Below, in pieces: positions 45,457-52,267 of a stretch of 64,000 nucleotides of DNA (positions are counted from its first letter, which is position 1; the number at the start of each line of letters is the position of its first letter). The notes beneath the pieces were generated by a model. It worked only from the letters and a program-made list of their open reading frames with translations, was not told the DNA's origin and searched no databases. The stretch comes from Deltaproteobacteria bacterium (GTDB taxonomy: Bacteria > Myxococcota_A > Polyangia > Polyangiales > Sandaracinaceae), in assembly GCA_046342295.1 (NCBI GenBank), contig JBKDQC010000599.1, positions 531 to 64,530 of the forward strand. Reading direction: 5' to 3'. The position numbers and the translations under genes are program-made.

Positions 45457-46731
45457 TCAGAGCCCCCGCAGAGCAGTCTCGACGCGGCCGCGCTCGGTCG
45501 TGCCCGCCCGCAAGGCCCGCTCGTAGTACTGCCGCGCCTGCGCGCGGTCGCTGCGGGCGCGCATCACGTCTCCGTAGAGCGCGAGCGCGTCGGCTTGCTC
45601 GGCCTGCACACGGAGAATGGAGTCGAGGAAGCCGCTCGCGAGCACGTCGCGCTGCTGCGAGAGCGCCAGACGTGCGGCGCGGAGCATGGGCTCGACGTTG
45701 CGCGTGTCGAAGCCGAAGGCTGTGCGGTAGGACTCGTACGCTTCCTCCGTGCGGGCCGTGCGTGCGAGCACATCGGCGAGCGCGGTCATCGCCGCTTGGT
45801 CGTTCGTCACGATCTCGAGCGCGCGCCGCAGCGCGGACTCGGCGCCGCCGAGCTCCCCGCGCGCCGCGAGGACACGTCCGAGGCCCGCGTGCGCCGGCTC
45901 GTGGTCCTGGCGGGCGGCCAGCGCTGCGCGGAAGGCCGCCTCGGCGCCCTCGAGCTGCGACGCGGAGACGAGCGCGTCGCCCAAAGCCGTCTGCGCCTCG
46001 GGCCACGCGGGTCGGCCCGCGACGGCCCGCTCGAGGAGCGCACGCCCCTCGTCCCCCCGGAGCAAGCGGCCGAGCTCGTAGTGGACCTCCGGGTCGAGCC
46101 CATCGAGCTCGAGCGCCCGGCGCAGCGCTCGGACCGCGTCCTCGCGCTGGCTCACGGCCGCGTAGAGGCGGCCGAGACCGAGGTGCGGGGCCGCCTCGCC
46201 CGGTCGCACGGCGGCCGCGCGCTGGTAGGCGGCCACGGCCTCGGTCGTGGCGGCGCGCAGGCGATGCGCCTCACCGAGCGCGAGCAAGCCCTCGTAGAGC
46301 GTGGGGTCGACGGCCAGCACCTCGTTCAGCGCCTCGAACGCGCGCGCGCTCCGGGCCCAGACCAGGTCCGTGCGGGCCTGGCACACGCGGGTGAGCGGTG
46401 CCGTTCGCTGGGCGCGGGCCATCGCGCGGCAGGCGGCCTCGGCGCCGCGGTGGTCCCGCTCCTCGAACGAGACCCGCGCGACATCGAAGAGCGCCTCGAG
46501 TGATCCGCGCGACAGCCGCGCGGTGCGCCCGAGCTGCTGCCGCGCCTCGCGGTAGCGGCCGGAGCGCAGAAGAGCCACGCCGAGGGCACGCTGCGCGCTC
46601 GCGTCGGCAGGCGCAGCGATCGCGGCTTCACGCAAGCGCGGCAGCTCCGTCTCCTGTGCCGACGCACGCGACAGGGGAGCGAGCACGACGGCCAGACTCG
46701 CGCACAGGACGACGGTGAAGAACGAGCGCAT
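45457..46731 (-). CDS. secreted TPR-repeat protein
   Basis: Signal peptide MRSFFTVVLCASLAVVLAPLSRASA, then repeated A..Y..AL..DP-type TPR units. Confidence 0.8.
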   Translation of the reverse strand: MRSFFTVVLCASLAVVLAPLSRASAQETELPRLREAAIAAPADASAQRALGVALLRSGRYREARQQLGRTARLSRGSLEALFDVARVSFEERDHRGAEAACRAMARAQRTAPLTRVCQARTDLVWARSARAFEALNEVLAVDPTLYEGLLALGEAHRLRAATTEAVAAYQRAAAVRPGEAAPHLGLGRLYAAVSQREDAVRALRRALELDGLDPEVHYELGRLLRGDEGRALLERAVAGRPAWPEAQTALGDALVSASQLEGAEAAFRAALAARQDHEPAHAGLGRVLAARGELGGAESALRRALEIVTNDQAAMTALADVLARTARTEEAYESYRTAFGFDTRNVEPMLRAARLALSQQRDVLASGFLDSILRVQAEQADALALYGDVMRARSDRAQARQYYERALRAGTTERGRVETALRGL

Positions 46732-46844: not shown

Positions 46845-49800
46845 TCAGAGCTGTGAGAGCCCGGTGCGGGCGTCGGCGTTGTTCGGGTCGAGCTGGAGGG
46901 CGCGCTCGAGCTCGCGCCGCGCCGCATCTCGGTTGCCGCTGCGGGCATGCGCTCGCCCGAGACCCACGTGGAACCCTGCGTTGGTGGGCGCGAGCTGGAC
47001 CGCGCGCTCGTAGGCCTGCACCGCACCGGTCGTGTCTCCCGCCGAGAGGCGGGCCGCGCCCAGGCCGCTCCATACGCTCGCGTTCGTCGGCGCGAGGCGG
47101 GTCGCCTGCTCGTAGGCCTGCGCGGCCTCGCGGTAGCGCCTCGCCTGGAAGTGCGCACGAGCCTGGGCCCGGAGGTCGTCGACGCTCGCCGTCCCCCCCG
47201 CCCCGCCGCCCGCGGCGCCAGCGCTCGGCGCACCCGCTCCGCCGGCACCCGCTCCGCCGGCACCCGCTCCGCCGGCACCCGTGCCGCCAGCGCCCGTGCC
47301 GCCAGCGCCCGTGCCGCCAGCGCCCGTGCCGCCAGCGCCCGTGCCGCCAGCGCCCGTGCCAGCGCCCGGGCGAAGTCCCGTGGCCAGCCGGGGTGCACCG
47401 GTGCTCGCGCTGCCGCTGCCTGTCGAGCCCGCCGAACCGCTGCCGGCTGAACCCGAGCCGCTGCCCGTCGAGCCCGCCGAGGTGGCCGATGAACCCGAGC
47501 CGCTCGTCGAGCCGCTGCCCGCCGAAGTGCTCCCGGCCGCACTGGGGCGCATGCCGGACGCCAGGCCACCGCCACCAGAGCCACCACCTGAGCTGCTGCC
47601 GCCACTGGCAGAGCCGCCCGTGCCCGTTCCACTCCCGCTGGGGCGCGTTCCGCTCGCGAGGCCGATGCCGCCGCTTCCGCCCGAGCCGCCAGAGCCCGAG
47701 CCGCCAGAGCCCGAGCCGCCCGAGCCGCCAGAGCCCGAGCCACCAGAGCCCAAGCCGCCAGCGCCCGAGCCACCAGCGCCCGAGCCGCCAGAGCCGGACA
47801 CGGAAGGTGCGGTCGTGGCCACCGCCGCGCTCGCGCGCGGCTGGAGCGTGATCGTCGTCGTGAAATCACTCGCGGGCATCGTCGACACGCTCGACTCGTA
47901 GTGACCTTCGAGCGTGGCGGTCGCCTGCACCAAGGAATCCCGGGGCACTTCGATCGTGACGGGCGCAGTGCCTCGCGGCGTTCCGTTGACCGTGATCGCC
48001 GCGCCAGGCGGGCTCGACTGCAGCGTCACCCGGACCATCGGCGCGGGCGCGGTCGGAGCGGGGACGACGGGAGGAGCAACGGCGACAGGCACCGTCGGGA
48101 CGGGCGTTGCGGGGACCGCCATCGGCGTTGCAGGGATCGCCACCGGCGGCGCGCCCGAGACGGCCGCGAGGATGGTCGTCTGCACCCCGCCGAGGTCCAA
48201 GAACCAAGCCGCGGCGGCACCCGCGACCGTCGTGAAGCCGCAGAAGCCCACGAGGCCGAGAAACACCCACAGGCCGGTGCGTCGCTTCCTCGGTTCCTCG
48301 GGCGTCGCCGCGCTGCTGTACGCGGGCGCAGGCGCTCCGAAACCACTGGCCGGCGCAGGCGCTCCGAACCCGCCCGCAGGCGCACCGAAGCCACCCGCGC
48401 TCGAAGGCGCGCCGAAGCCACCCGCGCTCGAAGGCGCGCCGAAGCCGCCCGCGCCCGAGGCCGCGCCGAAGCCACCCGCGCTCGAAGGCGCACCGAAGCC
48501 GCCCGCGCCCGAGGCCGCGCCGAAGCCACCCGCGCCCGAGGCCGCGCCGAAGCCACCCGCGCCCGAGGCCGCGCCGAAGCCACCCGCGCCCGAGGCCGCG
48601 CCGAAGCCACCCGCGCCCGAAGGCGCACCGAAGCCGCCCGCGCCCGAGGCGGCACCCGCGCTCGAAGGCACACCGAAGCCGCCCGAGGCCGCGCCGAAGC
48701 CACCCGCGCCCGAAGGCGCTCCCGCGCTCGAGGGCGCATCGAAGCCACCCGCACCCGCGGAGCCGCCGGGCCCTTGCGGCGGACCGAACGGCGCACCCTG
48801 TTGCGGGGGCGCCCCGAAGCCCGATGCGGGCGCTCCAAACCCCGCGCCCGATGCGGGCGCTCCGAAGCCGGGTGCGGGCGCCGTCGACGCCTGCGCGGCG
48901 GGTGGGCTCGCGGGCGCTGGCTGCGCTGTCGCTGGGGGAGCGCCCTCGATCTCTTCGAGGCCGCCGAGCGCCCGCAGCTCGTTCACCATGTCCCGCGAGA
49001 CTGCCTTCGTCTCCGCGAAATCATCGAAGTCGAGCGCCGCCGGCTCGGGCGCTGCGGGCTGGCTGGGAGGTGGGGGCGGCACCGCGAGGCCTCCCGACGG
49101 CGGGGCCGACATCTGCCCCGGGACCGTCGTCCGCGGCGGAGGCGGGGGGACGGAGCGCTTCTGACCCGGAACCGGAGGAGGATGAGACTGGCGTTGTGTC
49201 ATGGCGGAACCGTCGGAGTGGGGCGTGGCGAGAAGAGCCTCGGCGCCGGCGAGGTCGAGCGCGGACAACTGTTCCGTGCCGTCGGTACGGGGAGACGGCT
49301 GCGGCACAGCGACCGCGGCGAGGCCGAGAAGCGTTCCGCCGCCCTGCGGCCGGGACTGCGGCGCTCCGAGAGGACCCGTGAGCGGCTCGAGGATGCGGCG
49401 CACCTGCTGGGCCGAGAAAGGTCGGTCGCGCGGATCCTTCTGGAGCAATTGCGCGACGAGCGCGGTCACGACCTGGGGCTGCCCCTCGAGCGCTGGCGCG
49501 GGCTTCTGTCGGTGCTGCTCGAGGATCTCGTCGGCCGTCCCGACGAAGGGGGGCGCGCCGGTCAGGAGCTCGAAGAGCAAGCAGCCCAACGCGTAGAGGT
49601 CGCTACGGAAGCTCACGAGCTTGCCCAGCGCGTGCTCGGGCGACACGTAGGCGGGCTTTCCCACGATCTCGAACACCGACGCCGAGGCGATTCGCATGGC
49701 GACGCCCGTGTCGATCAGGCGGATGTCGCCATCGGGCTGCACGATGACGTGCTCGGGCGAGAGATCGCGCTGGAGCAGGCCGGCACGGTGAACCTCGTCG

Positions 49801-50168
49801 AGCGCTGCAGCGAGCTGTGCGACGACCTGGAGCGCGCCCTCGTAGGGCGCGCCGCGCGCGATCTTCTGACGCAGAGACTCGCCCTCGACCTCGACCCGGA
49901 AGACCCACGGGACATCGTCCGCAACACCGGTGGCATACACCTCCGCCAGGTAGGGGTGTCTGAGCGTCGCGAGCTTCTCGAGCTCGCGGCCGACACGCCC
50001 GCGCTCCGCGGCCGTCCACGCGCGCGCCGCCTCGATCAGCTTGAGCGCTCCGCGACGTTGCGTCGCCGCCTCGAGCGCACGATACGTGGCGCCCGACTGA
50101 CCAGCGGCGATGCGATCGCCCAGCTGGAAGCGCTGCGAGAGGACGTTCGGAAGCGAGCCGTCTGACAT
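46845..50168 (-). CDS. degenerate Ser/Thr kinase-like domain + FG-like repeat region + TM helix + PEGA-like domain + Gly/Ser/Ala/Thr low-complexity region + TPR domain
   Basis: Kinase fold with LLQRDLSPEHV (not HRD..N), DTG (not DFG) and AAGQSGA (degenerate G-loop). Also GGFGA(A/P)S repeats, the TM helix LWVFLGLVGFCGFTTVAGAAAAWFL, and C-terminal TPR repeats. Confidence 0.85.
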   Translation of the reverse strand: MSDGSLPNVLSQRFQLGDRIAAGQSGATYRALEAATQRRGALKLIEAARAWTAAERGRVGRELEKLATLRHPYLAEVYATGVADDVPWVFRVEVEGESLRQKIARGAPYEGALQVVAQLAAALDEVHRAGLLQRDLSPEHVIVQPDGDIRLIDTGVAMRIASASVFEIVGKPAYVSPEHALGKLVSFRSDLYALGCLLFELLTGAPPFVGTADEILEQHRQKPAPALEGQPQVVTALVAQLLQKDPRDRPFSAQQVRRILEPLTGPLGAPQSRPQGGGTLLGLAAVAVPQPSPRTDGTEQLSALDLAGAEALLATPHSDGSAMTQRQSHPPPVPGQKRSVPPPPPRTTVPGQMSAPPSGGLAVPPPPPSQPAAPEPAALDFDDFAETKAVSRDMVNELRALGGLEEIEGAPPATAQPAPASPPAAQASTAPAPGFGAPASGAGFGAPASGFGAPPQQGAPFGPPQGPGGSAGAGGFDAPSSAGAPSGAGGFGAASGGFGVPSSAGAASGAGGFGAPSGAGGFGAASGAGGFGAASGAGGFGAASGAGGFGAASGAGGFGAPSSAGGFGAASGAGGFGAPSSAGGFGAPSSAGGFGAPAGGFGAPAPASGFGAPAPAYSSAATPEEPRKRRTGLWVFLGLVGFCGFTTVAGAAAAWFLDLGGVQTTILAAVSGAPPVAIPATPMAVPATPVPTVPVAVAPPVVPAPTAPAPMVRVTLQSSPPGAAITVNGTPRGTAPVTIEVPRDSLVQATATLEGHYESSVSTMPASDFTTTITLQPRASAAVATTAPSVSGSGGSGAGGSGAGGLGSGGSGSGGSGGSGSGGSGSGGSGGSGGIGLASGTRPSGSGTGTGGSASGGSSSGGGSGGGGLASGMRPSAAGSTSAGSGSTSGSGSSATSAGSTGSGSGSAGSGSAGSTGSGSASTGAPRLATGLRPGAGTGAGGTGAGGTGAGGTGAGGTGAGGTGAGGAGAGGAGAGGAGAPSAGAAGGGAGGTASVDDLRAQARAHFQARRYREAAQAYEQATRLAPTNASVWSGLGAARLSAGDTTGAVQAYERAVQLAPTNAGFHVGLGRAHARSGNRDAARRELERALQLDPNNADARTGLSQL
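47228..47368. repeat. in-frame 15-nt tandem repeats (encode GAGGT/GAGGA pentapeptides on the minus strand)
   Basis: ggcacccgctccgcc x3, then agcgcccgtgccgcc x5. Confidence 0.85.
48330..48770. repeat. in-frame 27-nt tandem repeats (encode GAGGFGA(A/P)S nonapeptides on the minus strand)
   Basis: The unit gccgcgccgaagccacccgcgcccgag repeats about 14-16 times with variants. Confidence 0.85.
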
Positions 50169-50355
50169 GGGGGTGCGATGCTAGCCGGTGACATGGACGG
50201 GTCAACGCGGTGGCCCCGCCGCCAGTTGAGCTTTGACACGGTTTGACCTCGCGGCTTGGGCTTCGGTCGAACGCCGGCCGGGCCATGCAAATCCGGCTCT
50301 CGCCAAGGAGCAGCGCTCGAAGCAACATCGGGCACGAGCCGCCGATACCGAGCGC

Positions 50356-51423
50356 ATGTCTGACGACAAGACCGAGGAGCCCACACCCAGGCGTTTGAGG
50401 GAGGCGCGCGAGCGCGGCCAGGTCGCGAGGAGCAAGGAGCTCGGGACGGCCGCGCTGCTGCTCGTGACCGCGGCGACGCTCGCGAGCGCGGCGCCCGGCT
50501 TCCTCCGCTCGTTCCGCGACCTGCTCGAGCCTGCGCTCGCCGCCGCACGCGGCGAGAGCGAGCTCTCCGCGGCCGGGGCGCTGTCATTGGGCATGGAGGT
50601 CGCCTCGGGCGTGAGCCTGCCCGTCCTCGCAGCGCTCGTGACCGTCGCGGTGGTCGCTTCGATCGTCCAGACGGGCCCCGTGCTCGCGCTCCAGGCGATC
50701 CGCTGGGACCTCTCTCGCCTCGATCCGATCGCGGGCGCAAGCCGTCTCTTCGGTCGCGACGCGTGGGTCGAGCTCGGCCGTTCCGTGCTCAAGGTGGGCA
50801 TCGTCGCCTGGGTCGTGATCGGGGTCGTCGAAGACGCGATGCGCGGCTCGATCGCCCTCGTCGGGCGCGACGCGAGCGCGCTCGCCGGCGCGCTCGGCGC
50901 CGTGGTGCAGGGCCTCCTCACGCGGAGCGGAGGCGCCATGCTGGCGGTCGCAGCCGCCGATGTCGTCTACCAGCGCTGGCGGCTCACGAAGGAGCTGCGC
51001 ATGACCAAGGAGGAGGTCAAGCGCGAGCACAAGGACGCCGAAGGCGACCCGCACGCGAAGGGAGAGCGCGACCGTGTGCGTCGCGAGATCGCGCAGCACG
51101 ACACAGCTGAATCCGTGCGCAGGGCGAGCGTGGTCGTCGTCAACCCCACCCACCTCGCCGTCGCGCTGCGCTTCGAGGAAGAGGAGAGCGAGGGCGCGCC
51201 CGAGGTCGTCGCCAAGGGCATGGAGGAGGAGGCGATCTACATCCGCCGACTCGCGGAGGAGGCGGGCGTGCCCATCGTGCGTGACATCCCTCTGGCGCGA
51301 GGCCTCTTCGAGCTCGAGCTCGGTGCGGAGATCCCCGAGCGCCTCTACGACGCAGTGGCCGCCGTGCTGCACGTCGCGTGGGCCGAGCGCGCCGCGGGCG
51401 AGCACGGGGGAGGTGCCGCTTGA
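50356..51423 (+). CDS. sctU: type III secretion export-apparatus switch protein, SctU/FlhB family (full length)
   Basis: N-terminal DKTEEPTPRRLREARERGQVARSKEL, 4 TM helices, MTKEEVKREHKDAEGDP, and the autocleavage motif VVVNPTHLAVAL. Confidence 0.88.
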   Translation: MSDDKTEEPTPRRLREARERGQVARSKELGTAALLLVTAATLASAAPGFLRSFRDLLEPALAAARGESELSAAGALSLGMEVASGVSLPVLAALVTVAVVASIVQTGPVLALQAIRWDLSRLDPIAGASRLFGRDAWVELGRSVLKVGIVAWVVIGVVEDAMRGSIALVGRDASALAGALGAVVQGLLTRSGGAMLAVAAADVVYQRWRLTKELRMTKEEVKREHKDAEGDPHAKGERDRVRREIAQHDTAESVRRASVVVVNPTHLAVALRFEEEESEGAPEVVAKGMEEEAIYIRRLAEEAGVPIVRDIPLARGLFELELGAEIPERLYDAVAAVLHVAWAERAAGEHGGGAA

Positions 51424-51815
51424 GCGCGCTTCGCGTTTCCGACGGCGCGCTCTCTCCAGCGACGATCACCAGCCTCGCCGACGAGCTGGGCGAGCTCGCG
51501 CGCGCACAGGCTGTTCACGGCGCGGAGCTCGCGCCCGAGCTCGTCCGCCTCGGAGCGGCGTGGCGCACGCCGGACGCGCACACGGGCCTCGGCGAGGCCG
51601 CGCCCATGCTCCGCACCGCAACCCTCGAGGAGGTCACTCGCATCGGCGCCCACCTCGGTCGGCTCGAGCGGGCGGCGAGCGAGCTGCCGGAGGAAGACAG
51701 TCTGCGCATCGCGGGGCGGCTCGCGCGCGTGCGCGTGCTCGTCGAGTGCGCGGGAGCGCTCGCGACGCTCCGGGCGGTCGCGGCCGCGGGCCTCTGCGCC
51801 GCGAGGCCGGCGTGA
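51420..51815 (+). CDS. hypothetical small protein (TTG start overlapping the sctU stop)
   Basis: The frame is open and helical-looking (LADELGELARAQ...). The start codon is uncertain and the Ala/Arg-rich composition limits confidence. Confidence 0.4.
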   Translation: MSALRVSDGALSPATITSLADELGELARAQAVHGAELAPELVRLGAAWRTPDAHTGLGEAAPMLRTATLEEVTRIGAHLGRLERAASELPEEDSLRIAGRLARVRVLVECAGALATLRAVAAAGLCAARPA

Positions 51816-52267
51816 GCCCCGAGGCGGCCTTGCTCGCGCGTGCGCTCCTGGACGGCCGCACGCTCGCGTCGGTGATCGGAGTGCCCGACGCGAGCCTCGA
51901 GGCGGCCCGCGACCTGGCGCGTTGGGCCGCGGCGATCGGCGAGCCGCAGCTCGCGCTCGCGGTCTGGGACGGCTGCGCCGCGCTCGATGACGCGGCGCCC
52001 TCGTGGCTCGGCCTGGCCGAGGTGGCCCTCGCGGCAGGCGAGGCCGGCCGCGCCTTCGAGGCGGCCGCGCAAGCGCGGGACCGCGCCGGCATCACGGACC
52101 GGGATCGCGCCGCGCTCGTCTCGGCGCGCGCCTGTCTACTCGGGGGGCGCGTCGCGGAGGCGCGCGCGTGGCTCCACACGATCTCCGGCGACGCGGACAA
52201 CGACGTCGCGCAGCTCGCACGCGCGATCGAAGCGTCGCTCGAGGCGCGTGCGGTGCAGGCTGGATGA
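51812..52267 (+). CDS. TPR-like protein resembling class II type III secretion chaperones (SycD/LcrH/IpgC pattern)
   Basis: GTGA overlap start. By eye, ALLDGRTLASVIGVPDASLEAARDLA...ALAVWDGCAALDD...WLGLAEVALAAGE...SARACLLGGRVAEARAWL follows the spacing of G.T.A...D.LE..LA...C.LD...LGL...A.CLL..G...EA in SycD. Confidence 0.55.
   Translation: MSPEAALLARALLDGRTLASVIGVPDASLEAARDLARWAAAIGEPQLALAVWDGCAALDDAAPSWLGLAEVALAAGEAGRAFEAAAQARDRAGITDRDRAALVSARACLLGGRVAEARAWLHTISGDADNDVAQLARAIEASLEARAVQAG

Follow-up and report, generated by a model that had tools for sequence, protein, structure and literature searches.

What kind of protein joins a kinase-like domain to phenylalanine-glycine (FG) repeats of the sort known from nucleoporins, and what could such repeats do at a bacterial membrane? 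The question is raised by a minus-strand gene in a 64,000-nucleotide window, the whole stretch of DNA analysed here, from contig JBKDQC010000599.1 of an uncultured Sandaracinaceae bacterium (Myxococcota). The host genome is a metagenome-assembled genome of 836 contigs with 95% completeness. The coding sequence (46845..50168) starts with ATG and specifies 1107 amino acids. GC content at the locus is 70-78%, and long spurious open reading frames (ORFs) occur in the other frames; we take the minus-strand frame to be the gene because full-length relatives (54-90% identity) have the same N-terminus. An earlier note, made from the letters of the sequence, had described a kinase-like domain, an FG array, a transmembrane helix, a PEGA-like domain, low-complexity sequence and TPRs, with three in-frame tandem arrays. 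Pfam searches, an AlphaFold2 model and a tandem-repeat scan all uphold that description. The full-length model was built on 56 family members, and 550 of its residues have a predicted local distance difference test score (pLDDT) below 50. The protein is a bitopic, receptor-like inner-membrane protein that belongs to a Sandaracinaceae-wide Hanks-type family with the order kinase, transmembrane helix, (PEGA) and TPR. Judged from its sequence, the ORF is a variant of a known bacterial receptor-kinase type, set apart by a family-wide unusual active site and by an aromatic low-complexity module that is lineage-specific and strain-variable.

Membership of the N-terminal domain in the Hanks-type superfamily follows from its match to Pfam Pkinase (PF00069; residues 15-255, E=9e-31, 107.7 bits against a cutoff of 31.7). 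NCBIfam matches to named kinases were all sub-threshold, the best being of the PknB type. The closest solved relatives by both sequence and fold are Mycobacterium tuberculosis PknB and PknA (PknB, E=1.4e-35; Foldseek TM-score, 0.83), and residues 10-270 are modelled with pLDDT >90. We read the kinase motifs residue by residue against an alignment with M. tuberculosis PknB. Lys43 (VAIK), Glu62 (alphaC), Arg134-Asp135 (HRD) and Asp153 (DFG) are retained, and K43, E62, D135 and D153 pair with PknB residues K40, E59, D138 and D156; the ALK lysine and the alphaC glutamate had already been recognised in the earlier note. Four other positions depart from the canonical kinase: the HRD histidine is Gln133, the catalytic-loop lysine is Ser137, the metal-binding asparagine is His140 and the DFG phenylalanine is Thr154. 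The alignment thus confirms LLQRDLSPEHV in place of HRD..N and DTG in place of DFG. The G-loop, which had been called degenerate (AAGQSGA), has lost its first glycine to alanine, but the rest of its glycines are kept. The activation loop is 5 residues shorter than that of PknB and has no TxT sites.

Classifications of bacterial Ser/Thr kinases reserve the term pseudokinase for domains that have lost at least one of the VAIK lysine, the HRD aspartate and the DFG aspartate. Lys43, Asp135 and Asp153 are all present, so the original label of a pseudokinase-like domain describes the four degenerate active-site positions but does not hold under the formal definition. We consider it rather probable that phosphotransfer is weak or absent while nucleotide binding is retained. 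The first expectation arises because both regulatory-spine positions (the HRD histidine and the DFG phenylalanine), the gamma-phosphate lysine and the second-metal asparagine have all been lost, and the second because Lys43-Glu62, Asp135 and Asp153 have been kept.

The unusual active site is shared by relatives throughout a well-populated family. We define the family by the signature xRD-x-x-x-x-H, D[AST]G, KLVSFRSDLY, RPFSAQQVRR, a transmembrane helix and three C-terminal TPRs, all of which the query carries; its members have the same order of parts and strongly conserve the KLVSFRSDLY and RPFSAQQVRR motifs. Our family table holds 55 aligned orthologues (56 sequences with the query), to which an exhaustive search of 1.8 billion proteins added 42 further representatives. 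Histidine occupies the metal-binding asparagine position in 54 of the 55 aligned orthologues and in 39 of the 42 further representatives (93/97). The DFG phenylalanine, tabulated for the aligned set, is replaced by Ala, Ser, Thr or Pro in 55/55. Most of the family reads HRDLKPxH, and the QRDLSPxH form with Gln133 and Ser137 is confined to the near clade of the query. Across the 56 sequences there is little or no variation at Lys43, Glu62, Arg134-Asp135 and Asp153. Within the genus, identity is 80-82% over the kinase domain versus 64-71% over the C-terminal part, and the kinase domain is, by this measure, under constraint. Because the host genome otherwise encodes 71 canonical HRDxKPxN loops, 63 of which are paired with DFG, and only one other kinase with histidine at this position, the atypical active site is a trait of the family and not of the organism. 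Many distant family members also have an N-terminal extension of the form Cys-x2-Cys ... Cys-Pro-x-Asp-Gly, which is zinc-ribbon-like and is found in none of the query's clade.

This conservation also speaks for a different explanation, namely that the protein is an active, atypical receptor Ser/Thr kinase. Under that explanation histidine would replace asparagine at the second metal, perhaps with a preference for Mn, and ligand-induced dimerisation would lead to trans-phosphorylation as in PknB. A domain with a purely structural role would not readily account for the near-universal presence of Lys43, Glu62, Asp135 and Asp153 among the 55 orthologues. In addition, most of the wider family is altered only at the asparagine and the DFG phenylalanine, and the fold is very near those of PknB and PknA. 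However, the clade of the query has additionally lost the HRD histidine of the regulatory spine and the lysine that contacts the gamma-phosphate, with no compensating basic residue nearby. The second spine residue, the DFG phenylalanine, is threonine, and the shortened activation loop is without the PknB threonine sites. We know of no characterised active kinase with histidine at the metal-binding asparagine position, although no exhaustive search was made. We regard an active kinase as a serious rival, and as unlikely.

Among described systems, the PknB/PknA-type kinases (M. tuberculosis PknB and Streptococcus pneumoniae StkP) are the best match in sequence and fold and have the same plan of an N-terminal cytoplasmic kinase, a juxtamembrane linker, a single transmembrane segment and extracytoplasmic repeats. 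The query differs in its degenerate catalytic loop and DFG motif, in having no phospho-threonine sites in the activation loop, in its linker of about 360 residues with an FG array, and in a sensor made of PEGA and TPR where the PknB/PknA type has PASTA domains. The juxtamembrane regions of these kinases are functional, phosphorylated elements, according to PMC12077195. In phylum and architecture the closest likeness is to the Myxococcota family "Myxo1" (kinase-TM-TPR, TM being transmembrane), a comparison made by architecture only; "Myxo1" is catalogued with "Myxo2" (kinase plus a carboxypeptidase-regulatory-like domain) in an atlas of bacterial Ser/Thr kinases (bioRxiv 10.1101/2025.01.12.632604). 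The searched text of the atlas describes both as canonical kinases and mentions neither a His-for-Asn/D[AST]G signature nor FG arrays. Another membrane protein whose cytoplasmic kinase domain is non-canonical is M. tuberculosis MviN (Rv3910). Its pseudokinase domain serves as a phospho-dependent docking site for FhaA, a partner with an unstructured linker of about 300 residues, and aromatic-Gly tracts likewise occur in FHA and FHA-like proteins of our host genome. MviN has no VAIK lysine, HRD aspartate or DFG aspartate and does not bind ATP, whereas the query retains all three residues. The two proteins also differ in domain order and in their extracytoplasmic domains.

The side of the membrane on which the FG repeats lie is indicated by the charges that flank the predicted helix. 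The single transmembrane helix that had been proposed coincides with a hydropathy peak and with an AlphaFold2 helix at residues 631-658. Because RKRR precedes this helix and an acidic residue follows it, the kinase domain and FG array are assigned to the cytoplasm, and the PEGA domain, second linker and TPRs to the periplasm; this topology is supported by the predicted features. The disordered cytoplasmic linker spans about 360 residues and ends in the FG array. Its motifs are better conserved than the array itself: R-x-D-x-T-E-[EQ]-L-S-x-L-D-L occurs in one to three copies, and an acidic DLDYDDLAET-type motif is followed by a short helix. AlphaFold2 places short helices at these motifs (303-311 and 392-400), with a confidence (pLDDT 56-64) too low to bear on whether they dock to the kinase domain.

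Our recount gave 18 FG dipeptides, the approximate number reported before, 17 of them as GFG. They lie between residues 435 and 610, mostly within GAGGFGA(A/P)S nonamers. Residues 430-615 (186 residues) comprise 66 Gly, 51 Ala, 23 Ser, 22 Pro, 19 Phe, 3 Gln, 1 Asp and 1 Val, so that 19 phenylalanines are accompanied by a single charged residue. The segment is modelled with pLDDT <50; it is FG-rich, disordered and low in charge as FG nucleoporins are, a resemblance of composition only.

Absence or poor conservation of the FG region in orthologues had been named in the earlier note as a sign of neutral repeat expansion, and the outcome is divided. Six of the seven genomes of the genus carry FG arrays, as do neighbouring genera, but more distant orthologues are without one, including that in a complete 10.3-Mb genome of another genus, where the linker is acidic and Pro-rich. 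Three genomes of the genus have 15, 13 and 12 GFG, and a fourth has about 17 AQPQQGF[AP] units that keep the phenylalanine but not the following glycine; these Phe-Ala/Phe-Pro units account for the seventh genome. In neighbouring genera the unit is QPQQGFGQS or QGQG[YF]G. The repeat unit therefore varies by species (GAGGFGAAS, APAPSQQGFG, QPQQGFGQS, QGQG[YF]G or AQPQQGF[AP]), with a periodic aromatic residue in all. In about 16 near-clade orthologues the cytoplasmic juxtamembrane region is 8-10% aromatic and at most 3% charged, whereas the periplasmic linker of the same proteins, equally rich in repeats, is at most 1.3% aromatic. Several non-repetitive orthologues are still 5-10% aromatic in a Pro/Gln/Gly/Ala background, and phenylalanine is specified by an AT-rich codon within a region of 75-78% GC. 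Because linker aromatics differ in this way across the membrane and persist in non-repetitive orthologues, the conserved property, as far as these comparisons tell, is the periodic spacing of aromatics in an uncharged flexible cytoplasmic chain and not "FG" as such. The aromatic low-complexity region looks constrained, with a unit sequence and copy number that turn over fast.

The DNA repeats behind these tracts lie where they had been placed approximately. Tandem Repeats Finder reported a 27-nt period in 13.5 copies (48371-48719, 81% matches) and 15-nt periods in 8.1 copies (47239-47360, 96% matches) and 8.2 copies (47679-47795, 81% matches). Every period is a multiple of three, and all three arrays are in frame. 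The repeats had been called perfect, which is accurate for four consecutive identical 27-nt units (48510-48617); the other units have diverged. The prediction that the locus is prone to length variation is borne out by near-identical proteins that differ by whole repeat units. One of these, P0248 (1027 residues, 98.4% identical to the query), lacks exactly 63 residues, equivalent to seven FG nonamers, and its GSGGS array is shorter by a further 10 and 9 residues. In a sister species, P0250 has one ASSAGGFGAP unit more than P0001, to which it is 99.4% identical, and the two are encoded on contigs of 2.8 Mb and 0.69 Mb. A third protein, P0121, has an identical N-terminus and ends inside the array after 527 residues, on a 2.6-kb contig. 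These comparisons of predicted proteins support length variation between strains.

On the periplasmic side, the PEGA-like call is supported by a seven-strand beta-sandwich in the AlphaFold2 model (residues 711-775, pLDDT ~97) and by PF08308 matches in close orthologues; the query's own match to Pfam PEGA PF08308 (residues 713-742) scores 20.2 bits against a cutoff of 20.8. The low-complexity linker that follows, previously put at about 200 residues of GSGGS/GAGGT, comprises about 210 residues of Gly, Ser, Thr and Ala. Across orthologues it takes the form (GSGGS)n, (SSG)n, (TPTP)n or a T-rich sequence, and it keeps two or three G-L-A-S/T-G-x-R-P motifs, which are candidate ligands of the TPR domain. 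The C-terminal TPRs are likewise confirmed, and number three. TPR_11, TPR_2 and TPR_1 of Pfam each match three stretches at residues ~998-1107 (E 1e-14 to 1e-19), and AlphaFold2 builds seven TPR helices (996-1106, pLDDT ~98).

How could these parts work together? Our tentative proposal, which we hold to be quite possible though short of probable, is that the protein serves as a transmembrane scaffold of the clustering type, in which the kinase head is weakly active or inactive and the aromatic low-complexity region is multivalent. Deprived of a hydrophobic regulatory spine and of a canonical second-metal site, the kinase head would probably bind nucleotide with little or no phosphotransfer and would serve chiefly for docking or dimerisation. 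Conformational coupling appears implausible and clustering the realistic route, because 360 and 210 disordered residues flank a single transmembrane helix. The TPR head, tethered by its long linker, would capture a ligand localised in the periplasm or outer membrane and thereby concentrate the protein, whose kinase-like head and linker motifs would provide docking sites. Many FHA domains prefer pT-x-x-L, and the conserved threonine of the linker, in its T-E-[EQ]-L context, fits this preference. Phenylalanines evenly spaced in an uncharged Gly/Ala/Ser/Pro chain would act as weak multivalent "stickers" that help the protein to associate with itself, or with further aromatic-Gly proteins of the cell, at the inner membrane face. 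A hub or phase-separation role, as suggested in the earlier note, would be compatible with the composition and with the aromatic contrast across the membrane.

By analogy, precedents for a scaffold include MviN with FhaA, the "Myxo1" architecture, Fha condensates and Rv1747 clustering. Fha and PpkA belong to the system for type VI secretion (T6SS), where Fha forms condensates at the membrane complex, and Rv1747 of M. tuberculosis forms clusters. These systems share with our proposal a membrane-associated Ser/Thr-kinase signalling module and a disordered region that drives clustering. That region lies in an FHA protein or a transporter, whereas in the query it lies in a kinase-like receptor for which no T6SS context was seen. 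Cohesive FG domains of the Nup98 type, FUS-type [GS]Y[GS] sequences and glycine-loop proteins are alike in their disordered, nearly uncharged chains with regularly spaced, Gly-flanked aromatics, and one orthologue of the query shows F/Y exchange. The query differs from all of these in having no homology to them, a denser FG spacing (one per 9 residues), Gly/Ala/Ser/Pro spacers and a bacterial inner-membrane tether.

Several observations weigh against a scaffold of this kind. The catalytic triad is intact and conserved, which speaks for residual catalysis or, at the least, for nucleotide binding, and histidine could stand in for asparagine as a metal ligand. No partner or ligand emerges from the gene context; the neighbourhood is not conserved, and only the downstream TPR gene recurs, in one sister genome. 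Copy-number differences in short-read assemblies can be collapse artefacts, a caution that concerns the pair formed by the query and P0248, and two assemblies break inside such arrays. The FG arrays themselves could be neutral, in which case both they and the periplasmic Gly/Ser arrays would be products of replication slippage in linkers where only length and flexibility matter, and FG would have no specific role. This would account for the fast turnover of unit sequence and number between species and strains, for the absence of FG in distant orthologues including the complete genome of another genus, and for the QQGF[AP] units, with F-A/F-P in place of F-G, in one genus member. Identity of four array units at the DNA level points to recent slippage. 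Similar expansions in unrelated proteins of the same genus could likewise reflect a lineage-specific mutational bias and not selection. What neutral slippage does not readily explain is the enrichment of aromatics on the cytoplasmic side only, though both linkers are slippage-prone. Nor does it account for the persistence of phenylalanine, with its AT-rich codon, across differing units and through F/Y exchange, or for the aromatic content of the non-repetitive orthologues. We take neutral expansion to be as serious a rival as the active kinase, with a limited chance of being correct.

A six-frame scan of the host genome, together with searches of relatives, revealed three further proteins with aromatic-Gly tracts, two of which adjoin transmembrane segments. 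The earlier note had considered FG-type repeats on the cytoplasmic face of a membrane protein to be unusual in bacteria. The cytoplasmic location stands, given RKRR and the N-terminal kinase, but "unusual" is overstated for this lineage in view of the three additional proteins. Protein (a) is bitopic, with an FHA-like domain, a Pro-rich region, (SSQGFGA)n, a transmembrane helix and a periplasmic domain. Its FHA match scores 19.5 bits against a cutoff of 20.7, and its best PDB match is the FhaA FHA domain (E=0.0066). We considered protein (a) as a reader of phospho-threonine in the kinase linker and dropped it, because the canonical phospho-Thr-binding residues are not kept; a single-sequence AlphaFold2 model of its FHA-like domain reached a pLDDT of 35. 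The gene is split over contigs C714 (start, minus strand) and C286 (end), with the break inside the array, and full-length orthologues of 524-546 residues occur in sister genomes. Protein (b) is small and starts with M-(GGFG[QA]PP)n, followed by three transmembrane helices. It is encoded at the end of contig C660 and matches no Pfam family, and in its orthologues the array ranges from 5 to 11 units by species of the genus. Protein (c) has a canonical FHA domain (Pfam, 9.9e-15) preceded by a PGYGQ/GFG tract. It lies at the start of contig C824 (plus strand), and the layout of its Pro/Gln/Gly/Tyr tract recalls mycobacterial FhaA, which has a long unstructured linker and then a C-terminal FHA domain. 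Other six-frame FG matches, such as DFDFGFGF and REGFGG, were discarded as spurious frames of DNA repeats; on contigs C652 and C149 one frame reads DFDFGFGF or DIDFDIAF strings, in tandem repeats that probably do not code for protein.

The orthologues of proteins (a) and (b) encoded by the complete genome of the other genus contain no more than scattered [YF]G amid Pro, Gln and Gly, so the long arrays arose in parallel in the genus of the query. Such a parallel origin agrees with a slippage bias particular to the lineage and equally with tails that interact and have co-evolved. In a more far-reaching view, the GFG arrays on the cytoplasmic membrane-proximal tails of a kinase-like receptor, an FHA-like bitopic protein and a three-helix membrane protein, along with a soluble FHA protein, would share a cohesive aromatic "code" and form a membrane-attached condensate, its strength tuned by copy-number slippage. 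We give this extension of the scaffold proposal an outside chance. If it were true, bacteria would have, in the shared "code", an equivalent of the phase separation of receptor clusters.

Could the repeats instead build a selective barrier or transport gate like that of nucleoporins? A charge-depleted, FG-rich disordered domain on a membrane protein does resemble nucleoporins in composition, and in composition only. A full-text literature search for FG-type repeats in bacteria returned eukaryotic nucleoporin papers only. The domain matches in Pfam and NCBIfam were all to kinase, PEGA or TPR, with neither homology to a Nup nor pore anchorage, and the relatives found in Pfam, NCBIfam and protein searches were all bacterial kinases, with no Nup family among them. 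Neither a pore scaffold nor karyopherin-like partners are known in the lineage, and the spacers are Gly/Ala/Ser/Pro nonamers, not the polar spacers of 10-20 residues found in Nups. A barrier or gate is barely credible.

Ser/Thr kinases of the receptor type are familiar from bacteria, and the kinase-TM-TPR architecture has been catalogued in myxobacteria. The literature searched did not contain the family-wide variant with His for Asn and a small residue for the DFG phenylalanine beside a strictly conserved triad, which offers a clean natural test of what the asparagine and the regulatory spine contribute to kinase chemistry. Nor did it contain an aromatic juxtamembrane region of conserved character whose sequence and copy number turn over even between 98-99% identical strains, or arrays of the same type in further membrane proteins and FHA proteins within one cell. 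If the arrays mediate co-assembly, they would provide a simple bacterial system for membrane-tethered signalling condensates and for their tuning by repeat slippage. If they do not, the locus still warns that such arrays break or collapse short-read assemblies.

Table 1. Coordinates, in the window, of the parts of the kinase-like receptor gene and of the two genes beside it.
Feature	Residues	Positions	Strand	Evidence
Complete coding sequence: kinase-like domain, disordered linker, FG array, transmembrane helix, PEGA-like domain, Gly/Ser linker, TPRs	1107 aa	46845..50168	-	ORF list; full-length orthologues, 54-90% identity
Hanks-type kinase domain, cytoplasmic	8-270	49359..50147	-	Pfam Pkinase; PknB match; AlphaFold2; Foldseek
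Catalytic loop QRDLSPEH (canonical HRDLKPxN)	133-140	49749..49772	-	PknB alignment; family table
DTG for DFG, Asp retained	153-155	49704..49712	-	PknB alignment; family table
Linker motif RTDGTEQLSALDLAGAEAL, conserved; 1-3 copies in many orthologues	294-312	49233..49289	-	Motif scan
Acidic motif LDFDDFAETKAVSRDMVNELRALGGL, conserved	379-404	48957..49034	-	Motif scan and alignment; AlphaFold2 helix 392-400
Charge-poor Gly/Ala/Ser/Pro/Phe region, 18 FG (17 GFG), cytoplasmic, membrane-adjoining	430-615	48324..48881	-	Tandem-repeat scan; composition; AlphaFold2
Single transmembrane helix, after EEPRKRRTG	631-658	48195..48278	-	Hydropathy peak; AlphaFold2 helix; flanking charges
PEGA-like beta-sandwich, periplasmic	709-776	47841..48044	-	Sub-cutoff Pfam PEGA; AlphaFold2; PF08308 in orthologues
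Gly/Ser/Thr/Ala low-complexity linker, periplasmic; two 15-nt arrays and three G-L-A-S/T-G-x-R-P motifs	782-992	47193..47825	-	Repeat and motif scans; AlphaFold2
G-L-A-S/T-G-x-R-P motifs, three		47640-47663, 47544-47567, 47367-47393	-	Motif scan
Three TPRs and capping helix, periplasmic	996-1107	46848..47183	-	Pfam TPR; AlphaFold2
Downstream TPR protein, 424 aa, signal peptide, 113 bp after the stop		45457..46731	-	Also adjoins the orthologue in one sister genome
Divergent upstream sctU/flhB, full-length		50233..51423	+	Bac_export_2, E=5e-104

The divergent sctU/flhB gene raises the further possibility that the protein is part of a module for type III secretion or flagellar export. Its TPR domain resembles class II chaperones, with a match to LcrH/SycD (TIGR02552) of 43.9 bits. 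However, that score is far under the cutoff of 104.8 and typical of generic TPRs, and the domain lies on the periplasmic side. In none of 12 related loci does sctU stand next to the orthologue, and this absence of conserved synteny largely refutes the link, which we consider very improbable. Three sister genomes have a small paralogous kinase (394-418 residues, 28-32% identical) directly upstream of the orthologue; because sctU occupies that position in the window, the locus has been rearranged. Beyond sctU/flhB (51800-52267, plus strand) lie a small ORF without a family and a weak TPR-like ORF, with no other export-apparatus genes nearby. On the other side of the gene, the downstream TPR protein with its signal peptide is a possible periplasmic partner. 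Orthologues in more distant genera are surrounded by about eight genes that four genomes have in common and that differ from the surroundings in the window.

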